A program made the translations under genes and the position numbers. Positions 1,307-32,000 of a stretch of 32,000 nt of DNA are shown here, in pieces. This DNA comes from Acaryochloris marina S15 (GTDB lineage: Bacteria; Cyanobacteriota; Cyanobacteriia; Thermosynechococcales; Thermosynechococcaceae), in NCBI RefSeq assembly GCF_018336915.1, contig NZ_CP064926.1:210001-242000 (forward strand), given 5' to 3'. Position 1 is the first letter of the stretch. Each line of letters begins with the position of its first letter. The notes under the pieces were generated by a model, which was not told the origin of the DNA, did no database searches, and was given only the letters and a program-made list of their open reading frames with translations.

Positions 1307-1309
1307 GGT

Positions 1310-2101: not shown

Positions 2102-2103
2102 GG

Positions 2104-3088: not shown

Positions 3089-3182
3089 TACATTTGTGCT
3101 CCATTCCAAGTGATAACAACAATGAATTTTGAGTTTTGTAATACTGAGAGCACAGTATTTGAGCCTTTTAGCCAAAATTCTT

Positions 3183-3194
3183 TTCTATATAGAA
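3183..3194. promoter_or_regulatory. Perfect 12-bp palindrome TTCTATATAGAA in the 136-bp AT-rich spacer between atpR and atpB
   Basis: Read directly from the sequence. It lies in the only long non-coding gap inside the ATPase operon, next to a T8 run. A 7-bp stem hairpin is at 3140-3159 (AATACTG/CAGTATT). Confidence 0.3.
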
Positions 3195-3224
3195 TTTTTT
3201 TTAATAAAGTCTTTGATTCAGAAC

Positions 3225-3560
3225 TTATAAATCACAATTCACAACTTCTCTCCGCCTTTTCTTTATCTTCTGGGGTTGGGGAATAATGCTGCTAATCAAA
3301 ACATTTCGAGCCCAAAGAAATCCCAGAAATGTAAGGAGTAGAGGTCCTAGTAGATGATCGCTCACTCCCTTCTGAAGGATGAGGTGAAACACACCTAGAA
3401 CTGCCCCAAGACGGAGTATGAAACTACTCCACATCAGCAGGATGGGTTGAGTGGTTCGGTTAAACCGGAGAATCGTGATCCATAATCCACCGAAGTAAAG
3501 GAGTCCTAGTCCACTCCCCAAAATTAAGGAGGTGAATAGGGCGAGGGAATAACTATTCAT
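3225..3560 (-). CDS. atpR: N-ATPase accessory membrane protein AtpR
   Basis: 111 aa with three hydrophobic segments and an YFGGLWITI motif that resembles the AtpR family FGGLWWT block. It sits directly upstream of atpB, as in atpDCQRBEFAG operons. Confidence 0.65.
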   Translation of the reverse strand: MNSYSLALFTSLILGSGLGLLYFGGLWITILRFNRTTQPILLMWSSFILRLGAVLGVFHLILQKGVSDHLLGPLLLTFLGFLWARNVLISSIIPQPQKIKKRRREVVNCDL

Positions 3561-4786: not shown

Positions 4787-5093
4787 GATGACTTTCCTTT
4801 TTGATCCAATACCAGGCATTGAGGCAACCTAAAATCACCCCCACAACCAGCATGGTTAAGGTCCAAGAATAGCGGCTAGGGACATGATTATCTAGCCAAA
4901 CCCCGATGGCAATCCCCAATAGCGTTGGAATTGCCACTGACCACCCCACTAACCCGAACAGTCCTAGACCAAACCAGACGCTCTTTTTCTGGTGTCGAGC
5001 CTTTAGTTTGCGGTTAACTTTATCCTTAACTTGATGTTGAAAACCATGCTTGTCCGCTTGGCCTAAGTCCTTCGGTAGTGGTGAATTCTCCAT
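4779..5093 (-). CDS. atpQ: N-ATPase accessory membrane protein AtpQ (ATPase_gene1-like)
   Basis: 104 aa with a basic N-terminus followed by two TM helices (VWFGLGLFGLVGWSVAIPTLLGIAIGVWLD ... WTLTMLVVGVILGCLNAWYW). It sits directly after atpC. Confidence 0.65.
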   Translation of the reverse strand: MENSPLPKDLGQADKHGFQHQVKDKVNRKLKARHQKKSVWFGLGLFGLVGWSVAIPTLLGIAIGVWLDNHVPSRYSWTLTMLVVGVILGCLNAWYWIKKESHHE

Positions 5094-5107
5094 CCATAAC
5101 TCCGTTT

Positions 5108-6944
<1,837 letters not shown>

Positions 6945-6995
6945 CTACTACCTGCTATGTGTCCGATAGAAGAGAAGACACCATTGATTCGAGTT

Positions 6996-7061
6996 TTAGT
7001 GCTGAATCTTGAGGAAAATGTGAGGGCACCCGGAATGAATCAACGCTCCATGACATCGCAT
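6996..7061 (-). other. Candidate 21-codon upstream mini-ORF (MRCHGALIHSGCPHIFLKIQH) behind a perfect Shine-Dalgarno
   Basis: The minus strand reads TAAGGAGGTGATGTC-ATG, with 7 nt between GGAGG and the ATG. The ORF ends 54 nt before the atpD ATG. Coding status is unproven. Confidence 0.2.
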
Positions 7062-7103
7062 GACATCACCTCCTTACTTTCTGGTACTGGCCAGCATTTA
7101 AGG

Positions 7104-9620
7104 TTAGAGGGTAGCTTTCATCTGGGCTTCAACTTGGGCAATGGCCAACCGAGTTTTGAGTACCGTATCTGGGTTGAGGCTGATGGAATCAATCCCTTCC
7201 TCCACCAAGAACTGGGCAAACTCAGGATAGTCACTGGGGGCCTGACCACAGATACCAATTTTTCGACCTTTGGCCTTGGCAACGGTAATCACTTGCCGCA
7301 CCAAATTCTTCACGGCCGTATTGCGCTCATCAAAGATATGGGCAACTAAGGCAGAGTCCCGATCTAGTCCTAGAGTGAGCTGGGTTAAGTCATTAGAGCC
7401 AATGGAGAAACCATCAAATACCTCTGCAAATTCCTCTGCCAGCACCACATTGCTAGGCACTTCGCACATCACATAAACCTGCAGACCATTCTCACCCCGT
7501 TTTAGACCATGTTGAGCCATTTCATCAAGAACCTGTTGGCCTTCTTCGGGGGTGCGACAGAAGGGAATCATGGGAATGAGATTCTGCAACCCCATATCAT
7601 CGCGAACCCGTTTCAGGGCATGACATTCCAGAGCGTAGGCTTGGCGATAGTTGGGGTCGTAATAGCGAGAGGCCCCCCGCCAACCAATCATCGGGTTTTC
7701 TTCCGTCGGTTCAAACTGGCGACCCCCGATTAAATTGGCATATTCATTACTCTTAAAGTCGGACATGCGAACGATCACGGGATTAGGATAGAAAGCCGCC
7801 GCAATCATACCCACCCCTTGGGCCAGCCGATCGACAAAGAAATCAGGTTTGTAATCATAATCAGCGGTCAGTTGAGCAATCGCCAGCTTGGCCTCCATAT
7901 CCGTTAACTCGTCATACTTCAGAAGTGCCAATGGATGAGTCTTAATTTGGTTGGCGATAATAAACTCCAATCGCGCTAGTCCTACCCCATCGCAGGGAAT
8001 GGCCGCCAGCCCAAAGGCTTCATCAGGATTACCCACATTCATCAGAATTTGGGTTTGGGTGGGGGGTAGTTCATCTAAGGCGGTTTCTTCCACCACAAAG
8101 GGCAGCAGTCCGGGATAGACCTGCCCCGTTTCACCTTCGGCACAGGAAATGGTGATGTTCTGCCCCGTTTGCAAAACTTCGGTGGCGTTGCCACAACCGA
8201 CAATGGCGGGAATACCCATCTCCCGCGCGATAATAGCTGCATGGCAGGTGCGTCCCCCTTGATTGGTGACAATGGCACTGGCCCTTTTCATAATCGGCTC
8301 CCAGTCGGGGTCTGTGCGGTTGGTTACCAAGACTTCACCAGCCTGGAATTCCTTAATCCCTTGGACCGAGGCAATCACCCGAGCTGCTCCCTGGCCAATG
8401 CGATCACCGACGGCTCGGCCCTGAATAAACGGTTTGGGTAAGGTATCCACTGTCATCCGATAGGAGGAGAGTCGATTTGCCACCTTCTGGGATTGAACGG
8501 TTTCTGGGCGGGCTTGGACAATAAATAGCTCCCCCGTTTGGCCGTCCTTGGCCCATTCGATATCCATGGGTGTGTCCACACCCCGAACCTGGGAATAGTG
8601 GTCTTCAATAATGCAAGCCCACTGGGCTAAGGTGAGGATTTCCTCATCACTGACGGAAAACTTAGCTCGGTCAGCCTCTGGAACGGCAATATTTTTGGTA
8701 AGTTTGCTGCCTCCCAGGTCGTAGATCATTTTGATCTCTTTACTGCCCAGATGTTTGTTCAAAATGGGACGAAAGCCGTCGCGCAAAGTCGGTTTAAAGA
8801 CCAGAAATTCGTCAGGATTGACGGCACCTTGGACGACATTTTCCCCTAGACCATAGGCAGCGGTGACTAAGGCTGCATTCTTAAACCCAGTTTCCGTATC
8901 GATGGAAAACATTACTCCAGAAGAGGCCAGATCCGAGCGCACCATTTTTTGCACTCCCACGGATAGAGCCACCTCGAAATGGTCAAAGCCTTTGAGGGTA
9001 CGATAGGAAATCGCCCGATCCGTGAAGATGGAGGCAAAGCATTTGTGGCAGGATTCCAAAACCTGCTTGACGCCATGGACATTTAGGTAGGTTTCCTGTT
9101 GTCCAGCAAAGCTCGCATCGGGCAGGTCTTCTGCCGTTGCACTGGAGCGCACGGCGACGTCGACGTTGTAGTGATAGGCTTGCAGTCGTTCTTGAACTTT
9201 GGAGTCTTGTCCCTCTGGAGCGGTACTGCCCACACCATATTGTTCACACAGTTGACAATAGGCGGTGGAAATCGCTAATTCTAGATCCTTGGGGAAAGGA
9301 GTGTGGAGAATCAGCGATCGTGCTTGTCGTCCTCGCTGACGTAGATTATCGACATCCTCAACATCTAGATCGGCAAAAATCTGTCGTAGTTGGACCTCAA
9401 TCCCTGCCTGTTGAATAAAATACCGATAGGCATAGGCTGTGGTGGCAAAGCCATTGGGCACATTCACGCCCAGGGGAACCAAATGCTGGATCATTTCACC
9501 TAGGGAAGCATTTTTGCCGCCAACCAGGGGAATATCCGCAATGCCCACCTCATCAAAACCTAAGATCAATACTTGCTTACGGCTGGTTTCCGAGAAAAGG
9601 CGGGGTTCTGTGTGAATCAT
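7104..9620 (-). CDS. ppsA: Phosphoenolpyruvate synthase (pyruvate, water dikinase)
   Basis: 838 aa and collinear with E. coli PpsA. Matching blocks include VGGKNASLGEMI, VRSSATAEDLPDASFAGQQETYLNV, the phosphohistidine swivel GGRTCHAAIIAREMGIPAIVG, and the C-terminal PEP-utilising barrel SIGSNDLTQ. Confidence 0.95.
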   Translation of the reverse strand: MIHTEPRLFSETSRKQVLILGFDEVGIADIPLVGGKNASLGEMIQHLVPLGVNVPNGFATTAYAYRYFIQQAGIEVQLRQIFADLDVEDVDNLRQRGRQARSLILHTPFPKDLELAISTAYCQLCEQYGVGSTAPEGQDSKVQERLQAYHYNVDVAVRSSATAEDLPDASFAGQQETYLNVHGVKQVLESCHKCFASIFTDRAISYRTLKGFDHFEVALSVGVQKMVRSDLASSGVMFSIDTETGFKNAALVTAAYGLGENVVQGAVNPDEFLVFKPTLRDGFRPILNKHLGSKEIKMIYDLGGSKLTKNIAVPEADRAKFSVSDEEILTLAQWACIIEDHYSQVRGVDTPMDIEWAKDGQTGELFIVQARPETVQSQKVANRLSSYRMTVDTLPKPFIQGRAVGDRIGQGAARVIASVQGIKEFQAGEVLVTNRTDPDWEPIMKRASAIVTNQGGRTCHAAIIAREMGIPAIVGCGNATEVLQTGQNITISCAEGETGQVYPGLLPFVVEETALDELPPTQTQILMNVGNPDEAFGLAAIPCDGVGLARLEFIIANQIKTHPLALLKYDELTDMEAKLAIAQLTADYDYKPDFFVDRLAQGVGMIAAAFYPNPVIVRMSDFKSNEYANLIGGRQFEPTEENPMIGWRGASRYYDPNYRQAYALECHALKRVRDDMGLQNLIPMIPFCRTPEEGQQVLDEMAQHGLKRGENGLQVYVMCEVPSNVVLAEEFAEVFDGFSIGSNDLTQLTLGLDRDSALVAHIFDERNTAVKNLVRQVITVAKAKGRKIGICGQAPSDYPEFAQFLVEEGIDSISLNPDTVLKTRLAIAQVEAQMKATL

Positions 9621-9706
9621 GAATTTAAGCTCCAGGAACCTCGAATTTGGCTTGAGATAAAAGTGTGAATTAAAGGCGCTCTATCACTTACATCAGAATC
9701 TTTAAG

Positions 9707-9726
9707 GCGCTAACTATAGTTAGCGC
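9707..9726. promoter_or_regulatory. Perfect 20-bp palindrome GCGCTAACTATAGTTAGCGC (terminator hairpin or operator)
   Basis: Read directly. It lies 74 nt after the kinase stop codon (9800-9802) and 87 nt upstream of the ppsA ATG. The octamer AAGGCGCT recurs at 9673-9680. No U-tract follows it. Confidence 0.35.
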
Positions 9727-9799
9727 TTGAATTGTGAAGATTTCCTGAGCTTCCGTCTTTAAAGCAGATATGAATTTTTATGGGACTATTTTAGTAGCT

Positions 9800-10918
9800 T
9801 CAATCTTGCTCTTGGATGGCCAAGGTAAAGTAAACGTCGGTGCCAATACCTAACTTCGATTCAATCCAAATCTTTCCTTGATGACGTTCAACGACTTTTT
9901 TACAGGTTGCAAGACCGATTCCTGTACCAGGATAGTTCTGGGGCATGAGTTGTTGAAAAGCTTGAAAAATATGGTCAAATTGCGATGACTCGATGCCAAT
10001 ACCGTTGTCATGCACTCCAAAACACCATTCTTGATCCTGACGTTCTACCGAAATCTTCAATTGACTCAACTCGTCCGGACGGTGAAATTTGATGGCATTA
10101 CTAATCAAGTTCTGAAATAGTTGGGCCAATTGCACTTTATCGGCAAGAACCGTCGGCAGGTGATCGGCAGTGATGGTGGCTCTTTGCTTCGAAATCTCAA
10201 CCTCTAAATCTGCCAGTACCTGATTTAAGACCATATTGCAGTCTGTTGATTCCAAGGTCATTGCCTTGCTGCCTACTTGACTGTAGGTCAGTAAATCCTC
10301 AATCAGTTCGTCCATGTGGGATGCTACGTCGACAATCCGACTCACTAACTTCATCCCTTCTTCACCAAGAGTTTGTTGGCATTTGAATCCCAACAGTTTT
10401 GCAAAGCCCAAAACACCCTGCAATGGCTGCCTTAAATCATGGGAGACGATGGATGTGAACTGTTCTAATGCTTGGTTAGAGCGCAATAATTCTTCATTTT
10501 GAGCAATTAACTTTTTGCGGAGACGAGTAATGGTCAGTTGATTTGCCACCCGTACTAAAACTTCCTCAGTTTGGAAGGGTTTCGTAATATAATCAACCCC
10601 TCCGACAGTAAAAGCTTTGATCTTGTCGGACGTATCGTCTAGGGCACTGAGGAAGATCACGGGGATATCGTAGGTTTTTACGTCAGTCTTCAACTGTTGA
10701 CAGACCTCATAACCATCCATTTCTGGCATTTTGATATCCAGCAATACAAGATCTGGCGGATCTGTCTGGGCGACTGACAGCGCCATCGTTCCATTCGTGA
10801 CTGCCCGAACTTCATACCCCTGATTCGTTAATGTATTGGATAACAAGCGAAGATTTTCTGGGGTATCATCTACAATCAAAATATCGCCTTTATACTCATC
10901 TTCAAGTGGGTTACTCAT
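9800..10918 (-). CDS. Hybrid response-regulator/histidine kinase (REC-HisKA-HATPase_c)
   Basis: N-terminal receiver domain (DLVLLDIKMPEMDGYEV, K at ITKPF), H-box SIVSHDLRQPL, N-box LISNAIKF, and G-boxes HDNGIGI and GTGIGLA. Confidence 0.9.
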   Translation of the reverse strand: MSNPLEDEYKGDILIVDDTPENLRLLSNTLTNQGYEVRAVTNGTMALSVAQTDPPDLVLLDIKMPEMDGYEVCQQLKTDVKTYDIPVIFLSALDDTSDKIKAFTVGGVDYITKPFQTEEVLVRVANQLTITRLRKKLIAQNEELLRSNQALEQFTSIVSHDLRQPLQGVLGFAKLLGFKCQQTLGEEGMKLVSRIVDVASHMDELIEDLLTYSQVGSKAMTLESTDCNMVLNQVLADLEVEISKQRATITADHLPTVLADKVQLAQLFQNLISNAIKFHRPDELSQLKISVERQDQEWCFGVHDNGIGIESSQFDHIFQAFQQLMPQNYPGTGIGLATCKKVVERHQGKIWIESKLGIGTDVYFTLAIQEQD

Positions 10919-10964
10919 AACAACGTTTACTCAGGTTTAAGTTTCAGAACGAACTAGGCTGGAG

Positions 10965-13169
10965 TCAGGGTTGGGTCAGAGTTAGAATTTTTTCGTAATT
11001 AAAATTACTGACCAAATCAGTGAGTCCTTCGGCGAGAATGCTATGTTCTTCTGGAATCTCTTGAATGAGGGTTTCAATTCGTGTGCTGCGCGCACTCATT
11101 GCCGCTTGATGTAGTTCAGCAAGCCATTCTGTCGGCATCACGGATAGTTGGGATGCGGTCACCTCCATTGCGGGTTGCGGTGAAAGGGGTTGAGGCTTTT
11201 CAAAGATATAGCGAACCCCCAGATACTCGGTCATCTTCTCGAAGATGGTGTCTTCAAGAAAAGGTTTTCGAACAAAATCATCACATCCGGTGGCGAGGAT
11301 TTGGGCTCTCTCTTCGTCAAGGGCACTGGCGGTGAGCGCAATGATTACAGTTGCTTGCCCTTTAATATGGGCTTTAATATATTGCGTTGCCTCATAACCG
11401 TCCATCACTGGCATTCGCATGTCCATCCAGATCAGATGAGGTCGCCAACGGTCACATTCTTCTATGGCCACTTTGCCATTTTCGGCTTCTCGGACTTCAA
11501 ATCCCAAGGGTTGCAAAAGATTGACCATCAGCTTGCGATTTTCCATCCGATCTTCAACAATCAAGATCCGATAAGCTGGCTGGTCTGGAGCAAGTCCGAT
11601 AACGCGTTGAGCCATCGGCTGAGGTTTATGATCTACCTCATTGCCCAAAGTCACTTGCAGATAAAACTGAAATGTCGTTCCCTGCCCAACAACACTCTTA
11701 ACGGTAAGGTCTCCTCCCATTAACTTTACAAAGCGGTGGCTAATGGGTAAGCCGAGTCCAGTCCCTTGCTGAGACTTTCGACCCGTTTCTGTTTGGGTGA
11801 AGGCGGCAAACAACTGTTTGATTTCACTGGGATCAATTCCAGGACCTGTGTCTTCGATTTCAAAAAATAAACATAATTGAGGAGCTTCGCTTGCCGCTTG
11901 AGCCTGAATCGGCCCAGCGTGAACCCTCAAATTAATGTGGCCTGATTCTGTGAATTTGATGGCGTTACCCAGCAAATTAATCAAGACTTGACGGAGTTTT
12001 CCTTCATCTGCGCGAATAAATTGGGGAGTATCAGGCGCGCGATCGCAAGTGAGCTGCAATCCCTTCGTTTTTGCTCGTAAATCGAGCATTTGTATCAACG
12101 TCTCTAGAAGATTATAGAGATCGAAGTTTGTTTTATGAAGGGTGACTCGACCGGCTTCGATTTTGGACATTTCGAGAATGTCATTAATCAATTCCAGTAA
12201 GTGCTCACCACTGCGGTTAATGATGTCGAGATGCTCTTTTTGAGCAGATGTGAGTGCAGGATCTCGATGCATCAATTGGGAAAACCCCAGAATCGCATTG
12301 AGAGGAGTCCGAAGTTCATGGCTCATGTTAGCCAAGAAACCGCTCTTAGCCTGATTGGCCACTTCAGCAGCTTCTTTGGCCTGCTGAAGCTCAGTTTCTG
12401 CTCTTTTGCGATCGCTACTATCCCGTAAAATTGCAGTGAAGACTTTTTCGTCTCCTAACTGTAACTGCGAAATCGAAGCTTCCGCCGGAAATTCTGTACC
12501 GTCCTTGCGTCGACCAAAAACCTCGCTGCGATCCCCCATCATTCTGGCGGTAGATCGAGAGGCACCAAATTTTTGAATATGCTTGTGATGAATAGATATT
12601 GCCCGTTTGGGTAACAGGAGATCCAGCGATTGACCTAGAACTTCATCAGCCTGATAACCAAAGACTTTCTCAGCGCCTTTATTAAACTGGTTGATCCGTT
12701 GGCTTGCATCCACGGAGATAATGGGGTCGTTGGCAATATCGAGAATCCCTAATAACATGGCTTCCGAACCGTCCCCTACAGCCTGGTTCAATGGCTCACT
12801 GAAGTGATTGTCTTGACGGACCCCAATTAATAAGGCTGCTGCAATCGTTCCCAAAAGGTTCAGGCTGAGTGCTCCCTGGAGGGTAATAGCATCGGAGATA
12901 ACTAGGATTTTATAGAGGGTGTAGGCAGACAGGACGCCGGAACTGAATATGCCTCCCCAAAGTCCAAGCCAATGGGCAGACAGGACTGCGCCGAGCATCA
13001 GTAAAGGATATAGGGTGGATGGCTCTGCACCGAAGGGGGGTAACAACTCCAACCCAAAAGCAAGAAATAGTATAGCAACGCCACCTGACCAGAAGGGGAA
13101 TAGGCGTTGACGTTGGATAGAGTTATCGAACGTGTCGGCTTGATGCTGACATGAGCCTGGGGAAGTCAT
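10965..13169 (-). CDS. Membrane hybrid sensor histidine kinase (TM region-PAS-HisKA-HATPase_c-REC-unassigned C-terminal domain)
   Basis: About 4 N-terminal TM helices, then a PAS-like segment (NDPIISVDASQRINQFNKGAEKVFGY). H-box MSHELRTPLN, N-box LLGNAIKFT, and G-boxes DTGPGI and GTGLGL. The receiver carries LIWMDMRMPVMDGYE. An 85-aa tail follows. Confidence 0.9.
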   Translation of the reverse strand: MTSPGSCQHQADTFDNSIQRQRLFPFWSGGVAILFLAFGLELLPPFGAEPSTLYPLLMLGAVLSAHWLGLWGGIFSSGVLSAYTLYKILVISDAITLQGALSLNLLGTIAAALLIGVRQDNHFSEPLNQAVGDGSEAMLLGILDIANDPIISVDASQRINQFNKGAEKVFGYQADEVLGQSLDLLLPKRAISIHHKHIQKFGASRSTARMMGDRSEVFGRRKDGTEFPAEASISQLQLGDEKVFTAILRDSSDRKRAETELQQAKEAAEVANQAKSGFLANMSHELRTPLNAILGFSQLMHRDPALTSAQKEHLDIINRSGEHLLELINDILEMSKIEAGRVTLHKTNFDLYNLLETLIQMLDLRAKTKGLQLTCDRAPDTPQFIRADEGKLRQVLINLLGNAIKFTESGHINLRVHAGPIQAQAASEAPQLCLFFEIEDTGPGIDPSEIKQLFAAFTQTETGRKSQQGTGLGLPISHRFVKLMGGDLTVKSVVGQGTTFQFYLQVTLGNEVDHKPQPMAQRVIGLAPDQPAYRILIVEDRMENRKLMVNLLQPLGFEVREAENGKVAIEECDRWRPHLIWMDMRMPVMDGYEATQYIKAHIKGQATVIIALTASALDEERAQILATGCDDFVRKPFLEDTIFEKMTEYLGVRYIFEKPQPLSPQPAMEVTASQLSVMPTEWLAELHQAAMSARSTRIETLIQEIPEEHSILAEGLTDLVSNFNYEKILTLTQP
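12039..12046. repeat. HIP1 palindrome GCGATCGC
   Basis: Exact octamer read in the sequence. Confidence 0.95.
12408..12415. repeat. HIP1 palindrome GCGATCGC
   Basis: Exact octamer read in the sequence. Confidence 0.95.
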
Positions 13170-22714: not shown

Positions 22715-22907
22715 TGCTAATTGCTGGATTAATTTACAGATCACTGTCTTGTGACCCATGCTCTAGCCCCGAGAAAAAAACCGTGAGGTATTGCGAACCA
22801 GTCATGAGAAGTACTTGGCTATGTCCGACTCTGATGTTCCTGATACCAATTTGTGTTTTGGGATGTAATTTAGATAGGATCTAATCCTATGTTCATTCCA
22901 TAAGTAT

Positions 22908-23441
22908 ATGAGTCGAGTTAGTACAGTTAAACCGCATCTAACAGTGGATGAGGTGAAAGACAAAATTGCTACGGCTCCGACTGCCCGCTGTCAGCAAAAA
23001 TGGATGATTATTTATAACGCCCTGGTAGATCCTCGCCCAGCTATCGAAATAGCCACGCATACTGCTACTAGTCTTCGAACGGTCCATCAGGTGATTTCCG
23101 CTTACAATCGCCTAGGAGCAGCAGCAATTGCTCCTAGGGCTAAACGGAAGAAGAATCCCGGTGCTTATCTGAGTATCGAAGAAGAGATTGAATTTTTAGA
23201 ATCGTTTATTGAACGTGCTCAACAAGGTCATTTAACAACGGTTCAAGAGATCCAAACGGCCTTTGAGACTAAAGTGGAGACGTCAGTGGCACCCAGTACT
23301 ATCTATCGTTTGCTAGACCGACACGGATGGCGCAAACTCATGCCTCGTCCGTCCCATCCCAATGGAAACAAAGCGGCACGAGAGGCTTTTAAAAAACTTT
23401 CGGGGGCTGGTCCAAACCGCTGTAGCAGATCGCTCAGCTGA
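22908..23441 (+). CDS. IS630-family transposase, N-terminal HTH part (orfA)
   Basis: Helix-turn-helix-like N-terminus. It ends ...NKAAREAFKK just before the frame change at the A6 run (23390-23395). Confidence 0.8.
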   Translation: MSRVSTVKPHLTVDEVKDKIATAPTARCQQKWMIIYNALVDPRPAIEIATHTATSLRTVHQVISAYNRLGAAAIAPRAKRKKNPGAYLSIEEEIEFLESFIERAQQGHLTTVQEIQTAFETKVETSVAPSTIYRLLDRHGWRKLMPRPSHPNGNKAAREAFKKLSGAGPNRCSRSLS

Positions 23442-23970
23442 AGACCAACGTCCCATTGTGATCATGGCAGCAGACGAAGGGCGCTTTGGTCGTCTAGGGC
23501 AAGTAAGAAGAGCTTGGTGTGCTCCTGGAATTCGACCCGAAAGTGGGCAGCAGCTTGTCCGTGAATATCTCTATGGCTATGTTGCTGTTGCTCCTGCGTT
23601 AGGAAAGATGAGTGCTTTAGTCTTACCCTTTTCCAATACTCAGATGATGAACTTATTCCTAGCACAAGTGGCGGATGAATTTTCAGACTATTTTGTGGTG
23701 ATGCAGGTCGATGGAGCGTCTTACCACACCGGAAAGAAGCTCGTCATTCCAGACAATATACGCTTGATTGTTCAGCCTCCTCGAAGTCCACAACTCAATG
23801 CTGTAGAGCATATCTGGGAGGAGGTGAAAGAAAAGCACTTCTACAATCAGGTTTTTGATTCTTTAGATGAGGTATCCGATACCTTGTGCAAGGGACTCAA
23901 AGAACTCATGGATTTACCCGATAGGCTGACTTCTATGACCAATTTTCCTCATATGAGAATTACGATTTAA
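23362..23970 (+). CDS. IS630-family transposase, DDE catalytic part (orfB, +1 frame relative to orfA)
   Basis: DDE_3 blocks are present: IMAADEGRFG, MQVDGASYH, and PPRSPQLNAVEHIWEEVK. No plausible independent start is visible. The sequence NFRGLVQTAV continues the orfA protein if one A is skipped. Confidence 0.8.
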   Translation: METKRHERLLKNFRGLVQTAVADRSAEDQRPIVIMAADEGRFGRLGQVRRAWCAPGIRPESGQQLVREYLYGYVAVAPALGKMSALVLPFSNTQMMNLFLAQVADEFSDYFVVMQVDGASYHTGKKLVIPDNIRLIVQPPRSPQLNAVEHIWEEVKEKHFYNQVFDSLDEVSDTLCKGLKELMDLPDRLTSMTNFPHMRITI

Positions 23971-24146
23971 AACGCAAATTGGTATGACACCTTTTTCGAC
24001 ATAGTTCATACCTTGTTCTAAGGTGCTCCATAAGCTATTCGCTAAAATGGCACTATCTTACAGGTCTCTTGCTAAGCGCAAACTTGGCCTTTTCCTGCAG
24101 CCTTAAGTGGATGGTGTTATTGACGCATAAAGGCAGGAATTTTCAC

Positions 24147-24199
24147 ATGAATACTAAATCAGGTTATTTGTTCGGAGCAAAGCAGCACAGGCTCTACTA
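24147..24199 (+). pseudogene. 5' fragment (17 codons + 2 nt) of the alpha/beta hydrolase gene split by IS630 copy 2
   Basis: ATG AAT ACT ... CTC TAC TA reads MNTKSGYLFGAKQHRLY(Y). It joins in frame to the sequence after the IS. Confidence 0.8.
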
Positions 24200-25432
24200 T
24201 AGATCTACAGATAAAGATCCGTGATTAGCTAGGCAGCTTGTGTACCCAAGGTTTTGCAATATTTGCCCATTAAGACAGTAATTTCATTGGGAGTCTGACT
24301 AAAGTACAGTAGCCCCTCATCGACCTGCTGAACTAAGTCATCAAATTGCTTGAAGAACCGTAGGTGTGTGCTGCGTTTTTTGAGTTTCTTCCACAAGAAT
24401 TCAATTGGGTTGAAGTCAGGAGAATATGTGGGTAATTGGAAAGGAGTAAGGCGAGCGGATTGCTGGTCAAAGAACTGCTTAGTTGCTTTACTGGTGTGAT
24501 ATCTAGCCCCGTCCTGAATGAGAATAATATGCTTGTGAGTCTGCTGGAGTACTTGAGTTAGAAAAGCAGTATACCCTTCAGAATTGAAGCGTCCCGTCTG
24601 ACCTTGATAGAAGAACTGACCAGAATGATAATCAATTAATCCAAACACCTTGTAAGCCTTCCGTTTACCACTGGTGGGCAATGTTGGCTGGTCTCCACGA
24701 AGACTCCAGGTGTAGCTTAACGACCCCCACTGCGCAAAACTGGCCTCATCCCCAAATAAAATTAGGGCATCTTTGGCTGCTGATAAACGCAAAATCTCAG
24801 GCCATTTGTGTGTCATCCATTCTTGTCGCTTGGCTTCATTGAGATGAGCTGCAACAAACCGTGCTCTTTGAAATGAAAAGCCTAAGTTCCTCAGTAGAGT
24901 ACTCACATAATGGGGATGATAGGAAACATTGAAGCGTTTCGCAATCAGGTCTTGAACCATTAATGCACTCCAACAACCACACTCGTATCCAGCTTTGAGC
25001 GGACCTGCTTTAATCCATGACTTGAGCTGTTGTCGTTGCCGTGGAGTGAGTTTGCTGCGACGTCCTTGAGACGCTTTGTATCTAAAGCTAGCGATACCTC
25101 GTTTTAGAAATGCATGCAGATAATCCCTGATCGTTTGTTCGCCTAGTGCCAATGTTTCAGCTACCTGTGCCACTGAACCACCTTGACCAAGCTGCAATAA
25201 AGCACTAATACGTTTGACCAGACGTAAATTCTGACTCCCGTATGCCTGGCGCAGTTTAGCTTCAATCTTTTGCGTGTTGATTGGGTAAAGCGCAGTTTGA
25301 ATTGTGCGAGCATACTGGATGACCTCTGATAATCTTGAAATCCTTGCCAGAGCTAAGAGTATCAGGAGCTAGTTACTATATTTAATGAAGATGTAGTGTC
25401 GCTAAAACCACGGATGCTTTTCTGAAGATCTA
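24200..25432 (-). mobile_element. Second, unrelated IS630-family insertion sequence (1233 bp)
   Basis: Inverted ends of about 30 bp: TAGATCTACAGATAAAGATCCGTGATTAGC versus the complement TAGATCTTCAGAAAAGCATCCGTGGTTTTAGC. TA flanks both sides at 24198-24199 and 25433-25434. Confidence 0.88.
24229..25197 (-). CDS. IS630-family DDE transposase
   Basis: HTH region (SVAQVAETLALGEQTIRDY) and DDE_3 blocks (ILFGDEASF, LIQDGARYH, YSPDFNPIEFLWKKLK). The track start is a TTG. The frame stays open upstream to 25368 and encodes homologous-looking sequence (EAKLRQAYGSQNLRLVKRISALL) but contains no ATG. Confidence 0.85.
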   Translation of the reverse strand: MQLGQGGSVAQVAETLALGEQTIRDYLHAFLKRGIASFRYKASQGRRSKLTPRQRQQLKSWIKAGPLKAGYECGCWSALMVQDLIAKRFNVSYHPHYVSTLLRNLGFSFQRARFVAAHLNEAKRQEWMTHKWPEILRLSAAKDALILFGDEASFAQWGSLSYTWSLRGDQPTLPTSGKRKAYKVFGLIDYHSGQFFYQGQTGRFNSEGYTAFLTQVLQQTHKHIILIQDGARYHTSKATKQFFDQQSARLTPFQLPTYSPDFNPIEFLWKKLKKRSTHLRFFKQFDDLVQQVDEGLLYFSQTPNEITVLMGKYCKTLGTQAA

Positions 25433-26284
25433 TATCGAGCTTGGTTTCACGAACATCCTCCTCAAGCTGCGGTGGCAATCATCCACGGCCTCGGTAGCCA
25501 TGGCAGTACTTTTATAAATGCGGTCAATACCTTTGTTCCTCAGGATTATGCGGTCTATGTCTTAGATCTACGGGGGCATGGTCGCTCTTCTGGAGAGCGA
25601 GGCTATATCAACCACTGGTCAGAGTTTAGAGCCGATTTTCACATGTTTCTGCAGTTAGTTGAGTACCAACAGCCTAACGTTCCTCTCTTTGCCTGGGGAC
25701 ATAGTCTAGGCGGTGTAATTGTTCTGGATTACGTCCTACATTATTCCCATCAGCTGTTGGGCATCATTGTATCCGGTCTACCCATGGGAGCTGTTGGTGT
25801 TTTACCCTGGAAGTTAGCAATCGCTAGTCTTCTATCACAGCTATGGCCTCGATTTTCTCTCAATACGGGCATCGATCTAGCCAGTAATTCTAGCGATCCA
25901 GCCATCCTTCTAGACTATTCTCAGGATCCCCTGCAGCACACTCAAGGAACAGCTCGGTTAGCCACTGAGTTTCTCCGCACTCAAGCCGAATTACAAGCCC
26001 AGGCAACAAATATCCGTCTACCGCTGTTGATGCTCCATGGCAGCAACGATCAGACCGCTTCTCTCACCGAGAGCATAGCCTTTTTTCAAAAGGTCGGTAG
26101 CAAGACTAAACAACATCTAGAATATCCAGGAGCCTTTCACGACTTACACGCTGATCTGGATGCCCAAACAGTACTCGCTGATATAAGCCAATGGCTTCGT
26201 CAGCAGCTCACAACCTTTCAGAAGACCAAGGAACGACAGCTTAGTATAGTCAGCCTTTTGTGGTCTCTTCCAAAGAGCGAATGA
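25433..26284 (+). pseudogene. 3' part of IS-disrupted alpha/beta hydrolase (lysophospholipase / monoacylglycerol-lipase-like)
   Basis: The frame is open from the TA duplication (YRAWFHEHPPQAAVAIIHGLGSHG). It carries the nucleophile elbow GHSLGG, the acid LHGSNDQ and the histidine GAFHDL. Confidence 0.85.
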
Positions 26285-26390
26285 ATTCACGAATGATATC
26301 GGTCTTGGTCCGATGTGTTTTTTTCGCATAGCGGTCCAATATTTTTAGTTCATACTCTGGAACTCTTATGCAAAGCTGATTCTGGGCCAT
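26250..26390 (-). CDS. Ribbon-helix-helix (CopG/Arc/MetJ-like) DNA-binding protein, 46 aa
   Basis: Not on the ORF track because it is under 60 aa. Manual translation gives MAQNQLCIRVPEYELKILDRYAKKTHRTKTDIIREFIRSLEETTKG. The pattern is a beta-strand followed by two helices, with the typical R-[ST]-K-[ST]-x-[IL]IRE block. It overlaps the hydrolase 3' end convergently by 35 nt. Confidence 0.6.
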   Translation of the reverse strand: MAQNQLCIRVPEYELKILDRYAKKTHRTKTDIIREFIRSLEETTKG

Positions 26391-26392
26391 AT

Positions 26393-26411
26393 GTATAGAT
26401 ATATGCTATAC
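26393..26411. promoter_or_regulatory. Inverted repeat GTATAG-N7-CTATAC immediately upstream of the RHH start codon
   Basis: Read directly. It abuts the ATG of the RHH gene and may be an autoregulatory operator. Confidence 0.3.
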
Positions 26412-26673
26412 TGCGATTGTACCTTAAAAATTGTCATTCAACGCTACTGAGCATCTTTTAAGGTTCCAATTCAATGACCACGCTGTATTGATGCTATTCA
26501 AAATTATTCAAGCAGTGCTTCGGCATCGCTAATGCTCCTTATTGTTGTAGAAATAAGAAATTAGATCGCGTAGCTTTGCCAGAAGCCATCTCACATCAAT
26601 GAAAGCGCGGAATGGTTGAGGAGACCTAGCACCGTTTGTGGAAGAGAGTCGCAAGTAGTGGCTCAAGCGGATC

Positions 26674-28713
26674 ATGTTTACACCCAACGAGATTTACTGC
26701 CCACCCCCGCAGCCCGAGCATGAGGTCTTAGGGCGAACCCTACCATCACTGCTCGATGAAGCCTGCAAGAGCCATCCGAACGCCCAGGCATTTAATCATT
26801 GGACGAGAGAAGGCTGGGAACCCGTCTCATCACGGGCGTTCTGTACAACCACAGAGGAAATCGCTTTGGGCCTAAAAGAACTTGGGCTAGAGACGGGCGA
26901 TCGCATTGCCTTACTGATGCACAGTGATGTCAACTTCTGCCTAGCCGATATGGGCAGCTTGCTGGCACGCCTGATCAACGTCCCTGTTTATATGGGTGAA
27001 ACACCCGAAAACATGGTGTTTATTTTGCAGCACAGTGGTGCAACAGCCCTGATGTTGTCTGATCTGCAGGTGTTGAAGCAAGTTGCCCCTTGCCTACATG
27101 AAGTATCTACTCTGAAATTTGTTTTTATTGCTAATGGCCTTAACTCTTCGACTACTGAGGATGCTTTAACAAAACTTCGCGTCGATATTCCAGAGAGTAT
27201 CCAGCTAATTTCTTTGTCTACCGTGCGGGCGTGGGGGATAGAGCAATGGTCAGATCAATCCCGGAAGAATTTAAGGGCCGAGATTTCACCTGAAGATGTG
27301 GCCACGATTGTCTATGTTGCTGGTGCGACGGGACGTTGTCAGGCATTTAGAAGCCAGGTATTGCCTATCTTTCAGGCAGTGACGGCCCTTAGACAGCGAC
27401 TACAGCACGGTGCCCCCTACCTGTGTGAACTTCCAAAAGGGGTCATGCTTACCCATGAAAATCTGGCAGGGAATGCGCTGGCAGCGTTTAGCATTATGCC
27501 GGGTCTTCGAACCGGTCCCCAGGAAACGGTCCTTTCTTTTCTGCCGCTCACCCACGTTTTTGCTCGAGTAATGCTGTACGGGCATCTGAGTTATGGTCAT
27601 ACGATTTATTTCACGACGCCCCAGCGGATCGTTAAACATTTACGGGAAATCCAGCCTACCATTTTATCCACAGTGCCGCGTCTTTTAGAAAAGGTCTATC
27701 AAAAGATTCAGGAGCGAGGCCAACCATTGCCCCGTTTCAAACAGATAATCCTCAAGTGGGCGATCGATCTAGCTCAGCGATACCAGCTGGGACGTCAGTC
27801 TCACGGGCTCTATACCTTGCAGCTAAAACTAGCCGATCAGTTCGTGTATCGCCAATGGCGTCAAGGATTTGGGGGCGTCTCAGGTTCCTCCTTTGTGGCG
27901 GTGCTGCCCTCAAACCAGAGTTAGCCACGGTCTTCTCTGCTGCCGGAATTCCAGTCCTTCAAGGGTATGGTCTCACTCAAACGAGTGCTGTGCTGTGCGT
28001 GAATCGAGGGGAACTGAATCGAGCTGGAACAGTAGGGGTGCCTATCCCTGGTGTTGAAATTGAGATCGCACCCGATGACGAAATCTTGGCCAAAGCCCCT
28101 ACGTGATGAAAGGCTATTACAATAATCCAGTTGCAACCCAAGAAGCCATTGACGCGAAGGGCTGGTTCCATACTGGCGACTATGGAGAGATAACTGATGA
28201 TGGATTCTTGACCATTACCGGCCAGAAAAAAGTCTCTTTAAACTATCAACCGGTAAGTATGTAGCCCCTGAGCGCATTGAGCATCATCTTGTTCAATCCC
28301 CGTTAGTGGATTGGGCTTTGGCTGTGGGTAATCAGCGCCCTTACTGTGGTCTGCTCATTTTTCCCAATCGACGGAGACTGCAAAGATTGGCCAAGAAGCT
28401 GGGGTTACATCTTCCCCTTAACGAGATCGTAGACCATCCGCAGATTGTTGCTGAATATCAGTTACTGATCGATGCGGCTAATCAGAAACTCCCGGCGTGG
28501 TCAAGGATAAAACGCATTCGCCTAATACTTGAAACACTCACCGTTACCCATGGATTACTGACACCCTCCCGACGACTCGATCGGGAATCAACCTGCACAG
28601 CCTTCGCTGAAGAGATTGAGGATCTGTATAGCACGGTTGTGCCTTCTAGGATCCAGTCAGTTACTTCCCCTATCCTACCAGCATCTGCATCGCTGACGTT
28701 GGAAGCTTCTTAG
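26674..28713 (+). pseudogene. Long-chain acyl-CoA ligase (AMP-forming, FAA1/FadD-like), disrupted
   Basis: Homologous sequence runs through four successive frame segments: 26674-27870, 27870-28100, 28100-28240 and 28240-28713. Recognisable blocks are [53 protein letters not shown] and [14 protein letters not shown] 96-bp insertion sits in the P-loop. Confidence 0.85.
26897..26904. repeat. HIP1 palindrome GCGATCGC
   Basis: Exact octamer read in the sequence. Confidence 0.95.
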
Positions 28714-28750
28714 GGCTTCATTCCTGCTGAATTTATTGAGGTTTGTTGTT

Positions 28751-31131
28751 ATGTTGAAACCATTTCGGACCGCTGCTATTCTCGGTGCAGGTGTGATGGG
28801 CACTCAAATTGCGGCCCACCTCGCTAATGCAGGCTTGGTGGTTTATCTCTTAGATCTGCCTGCACCTGGAGTCCATAAAAACGCGATTGTTGAAGCTGCT
28901 TTCCAGAGAGGGCTCCAGCAAAAGCCTCCGATTTTCTTTACTGAAAAAACAGCCCGCCGCATTATTCTGGGTAATTTTGACGATGACTGGCATCGCTTAA
29001 CCCATGTGGATTGGGTGATTGAGGCTGTAGTCGAGAAGCTAGAGGTTAAGCAACAGCTGATGGCTCGTTTAGAGGGTCACATTCGCGATGATGCAGTGGT
29101 GTCAACGAATACGAGTGGGTTGTCTATTCAAGCGATCACTGCAGATTGCTCTGATGCTTTCCGGCAGCGATTTCTGGGAACACACTTCTTCAATCCCCGC
29201 GCTACCTGAAGCTGTTGGAACTGATTCCTACTGCTGAAACGGATCCACAAATTGTGGATCAACTAAAGTGGTTTGGACATCTCTATCTAGGTAAAGGGGT
29301 GGTAGTCGCGAAGGACACCCCCAACTTTATCGGCAATCGAATTGGCGTTTTTATCAGTATGCTCGGTATCCAAGCCTTTACAGAACAGGGATACACCATT
29401 GAAGAGATTGATACTCTCACGGGGACGTTGACGGGGCGTCCCAAATCTGCAACTTTCCGCACGGCAGATATTGTGGGTCTCGATACGTTACTGTATGTGG
29501 CTGAAAATCTATATCCTGCCATCCCTGACGATGAAAGTCGTGATGTTTTTCAGGTGCCAAGGATTCTGAGACGCTTAGTAGAGGCAGGACAACTAGGGGC
29601 CAAAATGGGTCGGGGCTTTTATCAAAAGTGGGTAAAAATATTCTCTCCGTCAACCCGCAGACACTAGCATACGAAAAGGCTCAGTCCATGCATCTAGGGA
29701 ACTGGAAAGCCATTGCTAAAATTAAATCTCTTCCTGAACGTTTGCGAAAACTCTATCAAGATGACGGTCGAGCGGGAACATTGTTTCGGCAAACGATACT
29801 GAGAATCTTAAGTTACAGTGCCCATCGGATTCCTGAAATTGCCGATAGCCCCCTCAACATTGATCAAGCCATGCGTTGGGGATTTGGCTGGCAGCTCGGC
29901 CCTTTTGAAATTTGGCAGGAACTTGGCTTTGCTAGAGTCCTGAAAGATATGCAAGAGTCTGGGATGACGGTGCCCAGCTGGATTGAGTCCATGCAGCTTG
30001 CAGGCATTGACCGCTTCTATCAAAGGGCTAGCGAACATAGAGCAGCGTTTGTCTACCAACCCTACATGGCTACCATCCAACAGAAACACCACGGGATGAA
30101 CTGACTGTTGCTCAGATTAAGACTGATCCGAGGCACACGCTGTGGTCAAGTGCTGAAGCCGCGCTGATTGATATGGGGATCGCGTTGCCCTATTTGAGTT
30201 TCGTTCGAAGGGGAATACCCTTGGACAGGTTGTGGTGGATGGTTTCTCAGAAGCATTGGACATCGTCGAAGTTGGGGACTATCGCGGTCTAGTCATTGGA
30301 AATGATGGGGAGCATTTTTCTGCCGGGGCTAACCTGGCAGACATGATCAAGTTCTCACACCAAGACAAGGTCAATGTCTTCACAGATTGTGAGCATGGTG
30401 CAATTGCCCATCTCCTCGATCAGTTTCAGGCTCTGATGCTGCGAATTCACTACTTCCCCAAGCCAATTGTGGCAGCTATTCGGGGGCGAATCTTAGGGGG
30501 TGGCTGCGAATTGGTGATGGCCTCTCCCCACGTGGTGGCAGCGGCTGAAACCTACATTGGTTTGGTGGAACTGAGTGTGGGGCTCATTCCTGGTGCAGGC
30601 GGCATTATGACCATGGCTAACTGGGCTGCTGAGCATGCTGCCAGTGATTCCCCCAGCGATATTCAGCCGTTTTTAAAACAGGCTTTTGAGCATATAGGGA
30701 TGGCGAAGGTAGCTGGCAGCGCCTATGAAGCTCAAGAGTGGGGATATTTACCGCCTACTGCCCAGATTGTCATGAATAGCAATCGTCGTCTCTTCGTAGC
30801 CAAGGAAGAAGTGCTTCGCCTAGCTGGTGAGGGCTATGTTCCGCCACCCAAACGCAATGCGATCAAGGTGTTGGGCCAACCGGCCCGTGCCATGTTTGAA
30901 GCAGCGGCCTATCTGATGGAACAGGGAGGCTATATCTCTGAATATGATCGCTTTCTTGCAAACCGATTGGCCTTTGTCATCACAGGGGGGGATCTGTCAG
31001 CACCAACGTTAGTCTCCGATGATTACCTACTGGGACTAGAACGCGACATGTTTTTACCCCTGTTTACAAAGCAAAAAACTCAGGAACGGATTATGCATAC
31101 GTTGAGAACTAAAAAGCCTCTACGAAATTAG
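28751..31131 (+). pseudogene. fadN: FadN-type bifunctional 3-hydroxyacyl-CoA dehydrogenase / enoyl-CoA hydratase, disrupted
   Basis: An N-terminal Rossmann fold (AILGAGVMGTQIAAHLANAG, HFFNP) is followed by 3HCDH C-domains and a C-terminal crotonase fold (FSAGANL, GGGCELVMA). Homology continues across four frame changes near 29195, 29625, 30090 and 30176. Confidence 0.85.
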
Positions 31132-31172
31132 TAGGCTCCACCTTAACCCTCACAAAAGACGAGGTCAATGAC

Positions 31173-32000
31173 ATGAATAACGCATATATCGTCAGTAGCG
31201 TTCGCACTGCTGTTGGAAAATCCCCCCGAGGTACTTTGCGGAATAGTCGACCCGATGATTTGGGTGCCGCTGCTGTTAAGGGCGCACTCGATAATGTTCC
31301 CAAACTTGAGTTCGATCAAGTCGAGGATCTGATATTCGGTTGTTCCTTCCCTGAAGCCGAGCAGGGGTTCAACTTGGGGCGCGTGATTGCCCTGCGGGCG
31401 GGTCTTCCTCACTCCACTGCTGGTTGTACAGTGAACCGTTTTTGTTCATCGGGTTTACAAACCATTGCCATGGCAACCCAAGCAATCATGACAGGTCAGG
31501 CAGAGGTGATCGTGGCTGGGGGGGCCGAATCTATGAGTCTGATTCCGATGGGGGGACATTACCTAACGCCTAATCCAGTCTTACTGTCTGAAGTTCCTGA
31601 AGCTTATCTTTCGATGGGACTAACAGCAGAAAATGTGGCAGAAGAATTCCAAATTTCTAGGCATGATCAGGATGTTTTTGCGTTGCAATCGCATCTCAAA
31701 GCCCTGGCTGCCCTTGAGAAGGGACGGTTTAAAGACGAGGTTATTCCCTTTATGGTCAAGGAAACCACTTTAGTAGAGGGACAATCTCAAACCACTCAAA
31801 CCAGGTTCGACGTAGATGAAGGCCCTCGTGCTGACACCAGCCTTGAAGCCTTAGCTCAGCTCAAACCTGTCTTTAAGGTCGAGGGTACCGTTACGGCAGG
31901 CACGTCTTCCCAAATGTCGGATGGGGCAGCAGCAACGGTTGTGATGAGTGAGCGTAAGCTCAGAGAGCTTGCCCTTGCACCACTAGGCCGAATGCTGGGC
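31173..32000 (+). CDS. fadA: 3-ketoacyl-CoA thiolase (degradative type), partial, continues past window end
   Basis: Manual translation gives MNNAYIVSSVRTAVGKSPRGTLRNSRPDDLGA... with the active-site block CTVNRFCSSGLQTIA. The frame is open for 276 codons to the window end. GAGG lies 8 nt upstream of the ATG. Confidence 0.9.
   Translation, partial: MNNAYIVSSVRTAVGKSPRGTLRNSRPDDLGAAAVKGALDNVPKLEFDQVEDLIFGCSFPEAEQGFNLGRVIALRAGLPHSTAGCTVNRFCSSGLQTIAMATQAIMTGQAEVIVAGGAESMSLIPMGGHYLTPNPVLLSEVPEAYLSMGLTAENVAEEFQISRHDQDVFALQSHLKALAALEKGRFKDEVIPFMVKETTLVEGQSQTTQTRFDVDEGPRADTSLEALAQLKPVFKVEGTVTAGTSSQMSDGAAATVVMSERKLRELALAPLGRMLG

Follow-up and report, generated by a model that had tools for sequence, protein, structure and literature searches.

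Does the lipid-catabolism gene cluster in a 32,000-nucleotide stretch of Acaryochloris marina S15 DNA (NZ_CP064926.1, positions 210,001 to 242,000; hereafter the window) represent an acquired β-oxidation pathway that is being lost? The earlier note, made from the letters alone, read it as such: three of four genes damaged by independent mechanisms and the set probably taken up from elsewhere. The reading we prefer, with a probability of about 0.85, is that the cluster is a conserved cyanobacterial module with one real IS lesion, that its frameshifts are most likely leftover assembly errors and that the insert in its ligase is a kept loop.

Genes of the cluster

The cluster runs on the plus strand in the order hydrolase, acyl-CoA ligase, FadN-type dehydrogenase/hydratase and FadA thiolase (Table 1), and the Pfam and NCBIfam domains agree with the β-oxidation-like identities first proposed for these four genes. 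The acyl-CoA dehydrogenase that the earlier note suggested looking for downstream is found directly after the thiolase, past the window end, as an intact 809 aa FadE-type gene. Scored as the version of sister strain L037 (no DNA difference from the gene on S15 contig C4, which holds the window, was found over that stretch), FadE reaches 1027 bits against NF007000/PRK09463 (cut-off 600) and contains the Pfam domains Acyl-CoA_dh_N, Acyl-CoA_dh_M, Acyl-CoA_dh_1 and ACDH_C. The thiolase, previously described as intact, is indeed complete; it belongs to TIGR01930 (455 bits, cut-off 241) and all three catalytic motifs, NRFCSSG, GHPLGCTG and MCVGGGMG, are present in its 393-aa translation. In intact sister-strain orthologues FadN carries 3HCDH_N, 3HCDH and ECH in that order in one polypeptide of 794 aa; the window has these domains scattered over five frame segments. 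The ligase has the AMP-binding (PF00501) and C-terminal (PF23562) domains of an ANL-superfamily fatty acyl-CoA ligase, and its AlphaFold2 model is ANL-like and confident overall (mean pLDDT 85, pTM 0.84). The 46-aa ribbon-helix-helix ORF gives a weak match to PF01402 (scored as the L036 gene) and no match in an NCBIfam search; it is a possible candidate regulator.

Table 1. Coordinates of the features of the cluster and its surroundings (position 1 is the first letter of the window; extended coordinates continue the same numbering past its end).
Feature	Position	Strand	Remarks
IS630-family element, copy 1	22844..23984	+	HTH and DDE_3 ORFs; intergenic, upstream of hydrolase gene
α/β-hydrolase (lysophospholipase/monoglyceride-lipase family), codons 1-18	24147..24199	+	interrupted by IS copy 2
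IS630-family element, copy 2, 1.24 kb	24198-25434	-	DDE_3; TA duplication; within hydrolase gene
α/β-hydrolase remainder, residues 18-300	25433..26284	+	PF12146, E = 1e-59; GHSLGG nucleophile motif
Ribbon-helix-helix ORF, 46 aa	26250..26390	-	between hydrolase and ligase; same gene called in sister strain L036
Acyl-CoA ligase, 680 codons when intact	26674..28713	+	AMP-binding
Stretch near-identical to the C5 copy	26896..32000, on to 32684		5.79 kb; encloses all seven frame breaks
In-frame insert in A3/P-loop motif of ligase, 96 bp/32 codons	27334-27429	+	conserved in genus
FadN-type 3-hydroxyacyl-CoA dehydrogenase/enoyl-CoA hydratase, 794 codons when intact	28751..31131	+	3HCDH_N, 3HCDH, ECH
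FadA-type thiolase, 393 aa, intact	31173..32000, on to 32354 (extended coordinates)	+	NRFCSSG
FadE-type acyl-CoA dehydrogenase, 809 aa, intact	32395-34824 (extended coordinates)		outside window; after thiolase

An IS630 element interrupts the hydrolase gene

Two IS elements lie at the start of the cluster. Their assignment to the IS630 family is given by a DDE_3 transposase with HTH domains, terminal inverted repeats and a TA target duplication, and the genome contains 16 full copies. Copy 1 is missing from the sister-strain contigs, and L037 has the empty site. The insertion of copy 2 in the hydrolase gene is real, because it has a TA duplication, the site is empty in sister strains and joining the flanks without the IS restores an exact 300-codon ORF, the start of which agrees with the L037 orthologue; the segment downstream of the element (25433 to 26284) is 100% identical to that orthologue. 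The transposase frame of copy 2 is itself split by a one-base deletion in a T run, which the other 15 copies do not have. This recent insertion is the window's one real lesion. The proposal of three damaged genes thus holds for the hydrolase; the P-loop insert in the ligase is conserved, the frame breaks bear the signature of assembly error, and with no credible lesion besides the IS insertion the description of the cluster as being in the process of inactivation is not supported.

The frame breaks lie in duplicated DNA

The frame breaks of the ligase (27870 in a G run, 28095 in a C run, 28225 in an A run) and of FadN (29194, 29623, 30059 and 30174) are all one-base homopolymer deletions, all seven shift the frame in the same direction, and the broken runs are all short, with 3 to 6 bases left in the assembly. 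The cluster occurs a second time on contig C5 which, like C4, is a plasmid-like replicon, and there the runs at the seven sites broken in the window are intact, with the lengths (base and run length) G6, C5, A7, C5, A5, C4 and G5. Over the 5.79 kb in which the copies are near-identical they differ by 10 substitutions and 11 one-base indels, the C5 copy having four one-base homopolymer deletions at sites other than the seven of C4. Each of the 11 is a one-base deletion in a run of at least four bases, with an intact frame in the opposite copy, and the comparison of the two stretches contains no nonsense substitution and no longer deletion. Eleven one-base deletions against 10 substitutions, all in a duplicated stretch, is not the natural mutation spectrum of a genuine pseudogene, in which substitutions would be more numerous than indels, indels would vary in size and direction, and lesions would fall regardless of repeat boundaries.

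Eight contigs of sister strains, assembled from short reads and 99.3-99.9% identical to one or other cluster copy, have the longer run at all seven C4 sites and all four C5 sites; since they are other strains, they report the ancestral state and not that of S15. The ligase is 680 aa on every contig that reaches it, FadN (794 aa) and the thiolase (393 aa) are found on all eight, and FadE is 809 to 821 aa with the exception of L044, whose contig ends inside the gene. The survey of related strains recommended in the earlier note has therefore returned intact ligase, FadN and thiolase wherever these were reached. Across about 11.7 kb of unique flank, comparison with the same contigs gives zero indels.

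Other repeats of the genome carry the same signature. The internal differences of the 16 IS copies are five homopolymer deletions and zero substitutions, an 8.5 kb repeat common to contigs C1 and C3 aligns with 15 one-base gaps and 0 mismatches, and a 13 kb repeat inside C3 with 55 such gaps and 2 mismatches. Unique sequence is clean: the N-ATPase and exporter genes of the window are whole and 85 of the 87 chromosomal ORFs with close orthologues in A. marina MBIC11017 are unbroken, which rules out an assembly that is poor throughout. One-base indels in homopolymers that occur only in multi-copy sequence and at the ends of contigs are the mark of residual long-read errors in repeats, a known assembly artefact; the present case differs in that the errors of the two copies lie in separate blocks.

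As judged from the error pattern and the sister-strain comparison, the seven ligase and FadN frameshifts thus most probably stem from a long-read assembly in which one-base homopolymer deletions were left uncorrected. With the module on two plasmid-like replicons and its central 5.8 kb homogenised, reads over an error in one copy would align better to the other copy and polishing would never repair the error; the error pattern suggests that the errors survive because the sequence is duplicated. Sequencing error had been named in the earlier note as what would overturn the frame shifts as damage, and the assembly comparisons point that way.

The frameshifts could instead be real, the two plasmid copies decaying in a complementary manner after duplication and gene conversion (C4 losing ligase and FadN, C5 losing FadN and thiolase) while the pathway is lost from the strain. 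The breaks do stand in the deposited sequence, neither copy has an unbroken FadN, the hydrolase has truly been struck by an IS in an IS-rich genome, and several non-synonymous substitutions, two of them in the thiolase, are private to the C5 copy. Homopolymer slippage is moreover the commonest natural frameshift, which counts against an artefact, as does the arrangement of the lesions: the last of the seven C4 deletions precedes the first of the four C5 deletions, and such separate blocks have a chance of about 0.6% under random placement by our count. We nevertheless consider decay unlikely. Natural bacterial indel to substitution ratios are near 1 to 10, against 11 indels to 10 substitutions here; decay would have to proceed by deletions of exactly one base, 11 times, with neither nonsense substitutions nor longer deletions, and leave the DNA outside the duplicated stretch free of indels. 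The lesions are missing from all eight sister-strain contigs, and the same pattern, with zero substitutions, recurs in the IS copies and in other repeats, where decay is no explanation.

Apparent pseudogene clusters in the duplicated DNA of long-read assemblies may accordingly be artefacts and call for caution; a simple test here is to set the copies side by side and against contigs assembled from short reads of sister strains.

The ligase insert is a conserved loop

In the A3 motif of the ligase, 32 residues separate AGATGR from PKG, in place of the contiguous canonical P-loop (T/S)SGTTGxPKG. The same insert is kept in the genus and in three other cyanobacterial orthologues, which are intact. 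In many cyanobacterial orthologues the PKG lysine itself is replaced, the P-loop being degenerate in this ligase family. Within its domain, residues 220-251, which are the insert, are the only disordered part of the AlphaFold2 model. A mobile element was rejected as its source: the 96 bp are found only in the two cluster copies, and across genomes the insert varies like protein under selection. By its conservation, the insert is an old lineage-specific loop kept under selection and not a lesion.

Distribution and origin of the module

The five-gene module is conserved in cyanobacteria in both gene content and synteny. The order ligase-FadN-thiolase-FadE is the same in 60 of the 61 cyanobacterial loci with enough flank, and in 36 loci the hydrolase lies upstream of it. 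The cluster is present in six of eight genomes of the genus and is syntenic in MBIC11017 (NC_009925, about 2.137-2.147 Mb), where all five genes are intact and in unchanged order (77-94% protein identity), with the same 32-residue P-loop insert and a hydrolase that, unlike that of S15, carries no IS. There the module is single-copy and chromosomal, directly 3' of tRNA-Ser(CGA), whereas that of S15 is on two plasmid-like replicons and the equivalent chromosomal site is empty; within the genus the module thus moves from replicon to replicon. The best 80 relatives of FadE among 185,579 species are all cyanobacterial, at 62-90% identity. Across the phylum FadE-type genes were found in 10 of 401 sampled cyanobacterial genomes, in agreement with the earlier statement that such gene sets are unusual in cyanobacteria.

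Recent plasmid-borne acquisition from a non-cyanobacterial donor would suit the plasmid-like replicons on which the cluster sits, its rare and patchy distribution in the phylum, and the tRNA-Ser neighbourhood in MBIC11017 with its empty counterpart in S15. The density of HIP1, confirmed as a feature of this genome (0.34 sites per kb of chromosome), is lower on the plasmid-like replicons; the GC content of the cluster, however, agrees with the genome and the ligase gene contains one HIP1 site, although both comparisons are uninformative at the scale of a cluster. A non-photosynthetic sister class has homologues of 46-49% identity, and the gene order is kept across many cyanobacterial orders. 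A foreign donor is hence quite improbable and was rejected, on sequence matches and synteny, and 'probably acquired' gives way to a module shared among cyanobacteria.

That the breaks are real but bypassed by programmed ribosomal frameshifting or transcriptional slippage is barely credible and was rejected, for although every break is at a homopolymer run and shifts the frame the same way, seven separate sites in two genes would be required, in runs this short, when the orthologues of at least 60 species and of all sister strains are single uninterrupted ORFs.

Predicted pathway and comparison with known systems

Family membership suggests what the module would do. The α/β-hydrolase would release a fatty acid from lipid and the ligase would activate it; the membrane-anchored FadE-type dehydrogenase would desaturate the acyl-CoA, the FadN-type enzyme would hydrate and then oxidise it, and the FadA thiolase would cleave off acetyl-CoA. 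A search for the alpha subunit (PF00766) of ETF, which would be the electron acceptor of FadE in a complete cycle, gave no match in the 99%-complete genome and was positive in 10 of 14 control genomes; this counts against the pathway, as does the degenerate P-loop of the ligase family.

Figueiredo et al. (2021) found fadE, fadN and fadA missing from most, not all, cyanobacterial strains, and published labelling results speak against fatty-acid degradation in most cyanobacteria, which counts against a pathway here (PMC8252387). A co-occurrence module of the fadE, fadN and fadA genes has been described (PMC5862535). The biological point is to this extent modest and partly published; the syntenic hydrolase-ligase-FadN-FadA-FadE module nonetheless occurs in dozens of species, despite a review stating that such gene sets have never been reported in cyanobacteria (PMC10114076). 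We tentatively propose, at somewhat less than even odds, that a small part of the cyanobacteria (about 2-3% of the species sampled, but half of the family of S15) keeps a working five-gene module from lipid to acetyl-CoA, with a re-modelled ligase P-loop and an ETF-less, membrane-anchored FadE that perhaps feeds the quinone pool directly, and that the module as a whole moves between plasmids and a chromosomal site next to a tRNA gene. If true, this would contradict the usual view that β-oxidation is absent from the phylum.

Compared with the Bacillus subtilis-type FadN-FadA-FadE β-oxidation genes and with E. coli FadE, the S15 cluster differs in that no ETF was found in the genome and in the non-canonical P-loop of its ligase. 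FadN is below the cut-off of the nearest named curated model, NF052272 (Staph FadB; 639 against 999 bits), and yet has the B. subtilis-type arrangement of an N-terminal dehydrogenase and a C-terminal hydratase. Shared features are also the long form of FadE, with about 810 aa and an ACDH_C domain, and the degradative-type NRFCSSG of the thiolase; a further difference is the lipase-like hydrolase attached to the S15 cluster.

Gene content and genomic setting

The window covers bases 210001-242000 of C4, a 251.8 kb contig in an assembly of 7.11 Mb and seven contigs, the chromosome C1 (5.88 Mb) and six smaller ones; HIP1 sites (GCGATCGC) number 0.34 per kb on C1 and 0.07-0.15 per kb on the other six. 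The identities given in the earlier note to the plus-strand gene set are borne out by the domain matches and by the NRFCSSG motif. Read beyond the window end, the thiolase of the C4 copy is whole (393 aa, all three catalytic motifs present). The acyl-CoA dehydrogenase that the note had suggested looking for downstream follows directly outside the window, an unbroken FadE-type protein of 809 aa that scores 1027 bits on NF007000 (cut-off 600) and carries hydrophobic segments at its N-terminus.

Features of the window and of the C5 copy (window coordinates)
Feature	Position	Strand	Remarks
alpha/beta-hydrolase	window	+	PF12146, E = 1e-59
AMP-binding ligase	window	+	domain match
FadN-type gene	window	+	3HCDH_N, 3HCDH, ECH (FadN-type order)
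Thiolase	window, runs past its end	+	NRFCSSG
Ribbon-helix-helix ORF	26250-26390	-	46 aa, overlaps hydrolase 3' end
F-type ATPase operon	1-9620	-	includes ATPase_gene1 (AtpI-like) protein
Second IS630-type element	22844-23984		upstream of hydrolase, also missing from sister strains
Transposase of hydrolase-borne IS	25161-25371		split
C4 breaks (n = 7)	27870, 28095, 28225, 29194, 29623, 30059, 30174
C5 breaks (n = 4)	opposite 30482, 30496, 30985, 31439

The small ribbon-helix-helix ORF, which is also called in the sister plasmid record CP071719.1, there with a weak PF01402 match, may be a regulator of the cluster. The ATPase_gene1 protein points to an N-type (sodium) ATPase for the additional operon, a kind known from Acaryochloris plasmids. 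Past the window, C4 (L001 13346-19808) has HypD-, phosphofructokinase-, dihydroorotate-dehydrogenase-, MreB- and PsbU-like genes by domain matches from the sister record. Such genes are normally chromosomal, and C4 is plasmid-like.

Frame breaks in the two copies

A second copy of the cluster lies on contig C5 of this genome (109496-118157). The two copies are 94% identical overall, distributed as a mosaic: near-identical from window position 26896 to 32684 and 65-92% identical beyond that stretch. The C5 copy has an unbroken ligase (680 aa), an unbroken FadE (817 aa) and broken genes for FadN and thiolase. Over the 5.79 kb of near-identity there are 10 substitutions and 11 indels; all 11 indels are one base long and lie within runs of at least four identical bases, and at each the frame-breaking copy is the one with the shorter run. 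The breaks in the C4 FadN gene shift the frame in one direction at every site. All seven C4 sites lie to the left of all four C5 sites, an arrangement with an estimated chance of about 0.6% if errors were random.

Exact-sequence look-up of the thiolase returned the NCBI plasmid record CP071719.1 and, from sister strains, eight contigs built from short reads (Logan). Three of the Logan contigs are C4-like (99.7-99.9%), four are C5-like (99.3%) and one of 4.2 kb covers the shared stretch only. The related strains, whose survey for intact versions had been proposed, do carry them: gene calls give a 680-aa ligase on every contig extending to it, a 794-aa FadN and a 393-aa thiolase on all eight, a FadE of 809, 817 or 821 aa (L044, one of these contigs, ends within it) and a 300-aa hydrolase wherever it is entirely spanned. 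Length differences between C4 and the C4-type contigs are limited to the seven break sites and one gap at the IS junction, and those between C5 and the C5-type contigs to the four C5 sites; about 11.7 kb of unique flank contains no indels between the sister contigs and this genome. CP071719.1 has other homopolymer changes in the same cluster, an extra C at window position 27412 and another at 29194; the record has its ligase split over two gene calls and no call for FadN. In the assembly of another Acaryochloris species (locus L013), a single-copy ligase is split by a single one-base gap at a G-run, which may be either an error or a real change.

The same pattern recurs in repeats across the assembly. 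The IS in the hydrolase has 16 full copies, whose internal differences amount to five one-base homopolymer deletions and zero substitutions, with the remaining differences limited to one base at each extreme alignment end. An 8.5 kb repeat (C3 end and C1 3233601-3242154) has no mismatches and 15 one-base gaps, a 13 kb repeat (C3 1-13057 versus 275048-288077) has two mismatches and 55 one-base gaps, and each end of C2 repeats its internal segment 101617-129319 in inverted orientation with 45-52 one-base gaps; all repeats of 1 kb or longer together contain 1096 one-base gaps and 29 longer ones. The listed repeats on C1, C2 and C3 are signs of an untrimmed or chimeric assembly. Unique DNA is clean: the upstream genes of the window are whole, and 85 of 87 chromosomal ORFs (300 aa or longer, each closely matched by an orthologue in A. 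marina MBIC11017) are unbroken, the single frame-split one in this set having its halves about 1.4 kb apart.

Natural divergence is not known to produce indels as often as substitutions with every indel a one-base deletion, and it cannot account for 15 indels without substitutions. The frameshifts are therefore most likely errors of the consensus that persist in multi-copy DNA alone. Reads over an error in one copy would probably align better to the other copy, and polishing would miss the error. The earlier reading of the frame shifts as damage is not supported: the breaks are one-base homopolymer deletions found only in duplicated DNA and not in the sister Logan contigs.

IS630 insertion in the hydrolase

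The hydrolase in the window is interrupted by a 1.24 kb IS630-family element flanked by two TA copies, and the vacant site is seen in the sister contig L037 (...GGCTCTACTATCGAGC...). When the flanks were joined by script, an ORF of 300 codons resulted; it begins like the L037 protein, and its segment downstream of the IS is 100% identical to that protein. The insertion is real and recent. The transposase frame of the element is split because of a one-base deletion in a T-run that is full in the other 15 copies. Of the three mechanisms of damage put forward previously, this insertion stands; the frame shifts probably do not, and the P-loop insertion does not.

The P-loop insert of the ligase

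The stretch of 32 residues that separates AGATGR from PKG, regarded earlier as a lesion, recurs in all intact orthologues identified within the genus (six genomes) and in one further genus of the family. Its sequence varies between them, and no frame break falls inside it. Two more distant ligases, from a Prochloraceae MAG and a Leptolyngbyaceae MAG, also carry an insert at this position, with a motif in common. Within the genome the 96 bp are confined to the two cluster copies. An AlphaFold2 model of the ligase (53-sequence alignment) is confident (mean pLDDT 85, pTM 0.84) except for the insert (residues 220-251) and both termini. On these grounds the insert is a loop that is tolerated and maintained, not damage.

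In most members of the cyanobacterial ligase family to which this enzyme belongs, the A3 motif is degenerate, PKG being replaced by PQG, LQG, LLG and others (alignment A2, columns around residues 206-266 of L037:2373-4412), and the lysine is often substituted across the wider ligase family. A degenerate A3 motif is out of the ordinary for adenylate-forming enzymes.

Distribution and mobility of the cluster

FadE-type genes occur in six of eight genomes of the genus, 12 of 24 of the family and 10 of 401 sampled across the phylum, this genome included. Every one of the 80 best FadE matches in 185,579 species genomes is cyanobacterial, with many orders represented, and the gene order ligase-FadN-thiolase-FadE is the same in 60 of 61 loci whose upstream flank is long enough, the hydrolase lying upstream in 36. 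The matches and the kept order argue against the view that the cluster was probably acquired and for a long-standing cyanobacterial module of patchy distribution, not a recent import. In MBIC11017 (NC_009925) the whole module lies directly 3' of tRNA-Ser(CGA) (L046 1273-1361 and about 1690-11433), and in the present genome the flanks of that site are about 33 bp apart (C1 4846883-4846916) with the module absent. By these comparisons, the module moves as a unit between chromosome and plasmids within the genus.

Predicted pathway and relation to known gene sets

Gene content, domain sets, catalytic motifs and conserved order are direct observations, and the enzyme roles are predicted: the hydrolase would free a fatty acid, the ligase would form the acyl-CoA, and FadE, FadN and FadA would run the beta-oxidation cycle. 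The ETF alpha subunit (PF00766) was not found in the whole genome, despite two FadE-type dehydrogenase genes; speculatively, FadE may deliver its electrons to the quinone pool of the membrane. The observation in the earlier note is thus partly confirmed, and a pathway caught in decay has no support beyond the one IS hit in the hydrolase.

A 2023 review (PMC10114076) states that such gene sets have never been reported in cyanobacteria. Among 129 KEGG genomes, fadB/fadJ are missing from all and fadE, fadN and fadA from most (Figueiredo et al., 2021; PMC8252387), so a minority of cyanobacteria has the latter genes, and a pan-genome study (PMC5862535) describes a thiolase-centred co-occurrence module with acyl-CoA dehydrogenase and 3-hydroxyacyl-CoA dehydrogenase. 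Because these two studies report such genes, the presence of the cluster in cyanobacteria is already known, with its function predicted.
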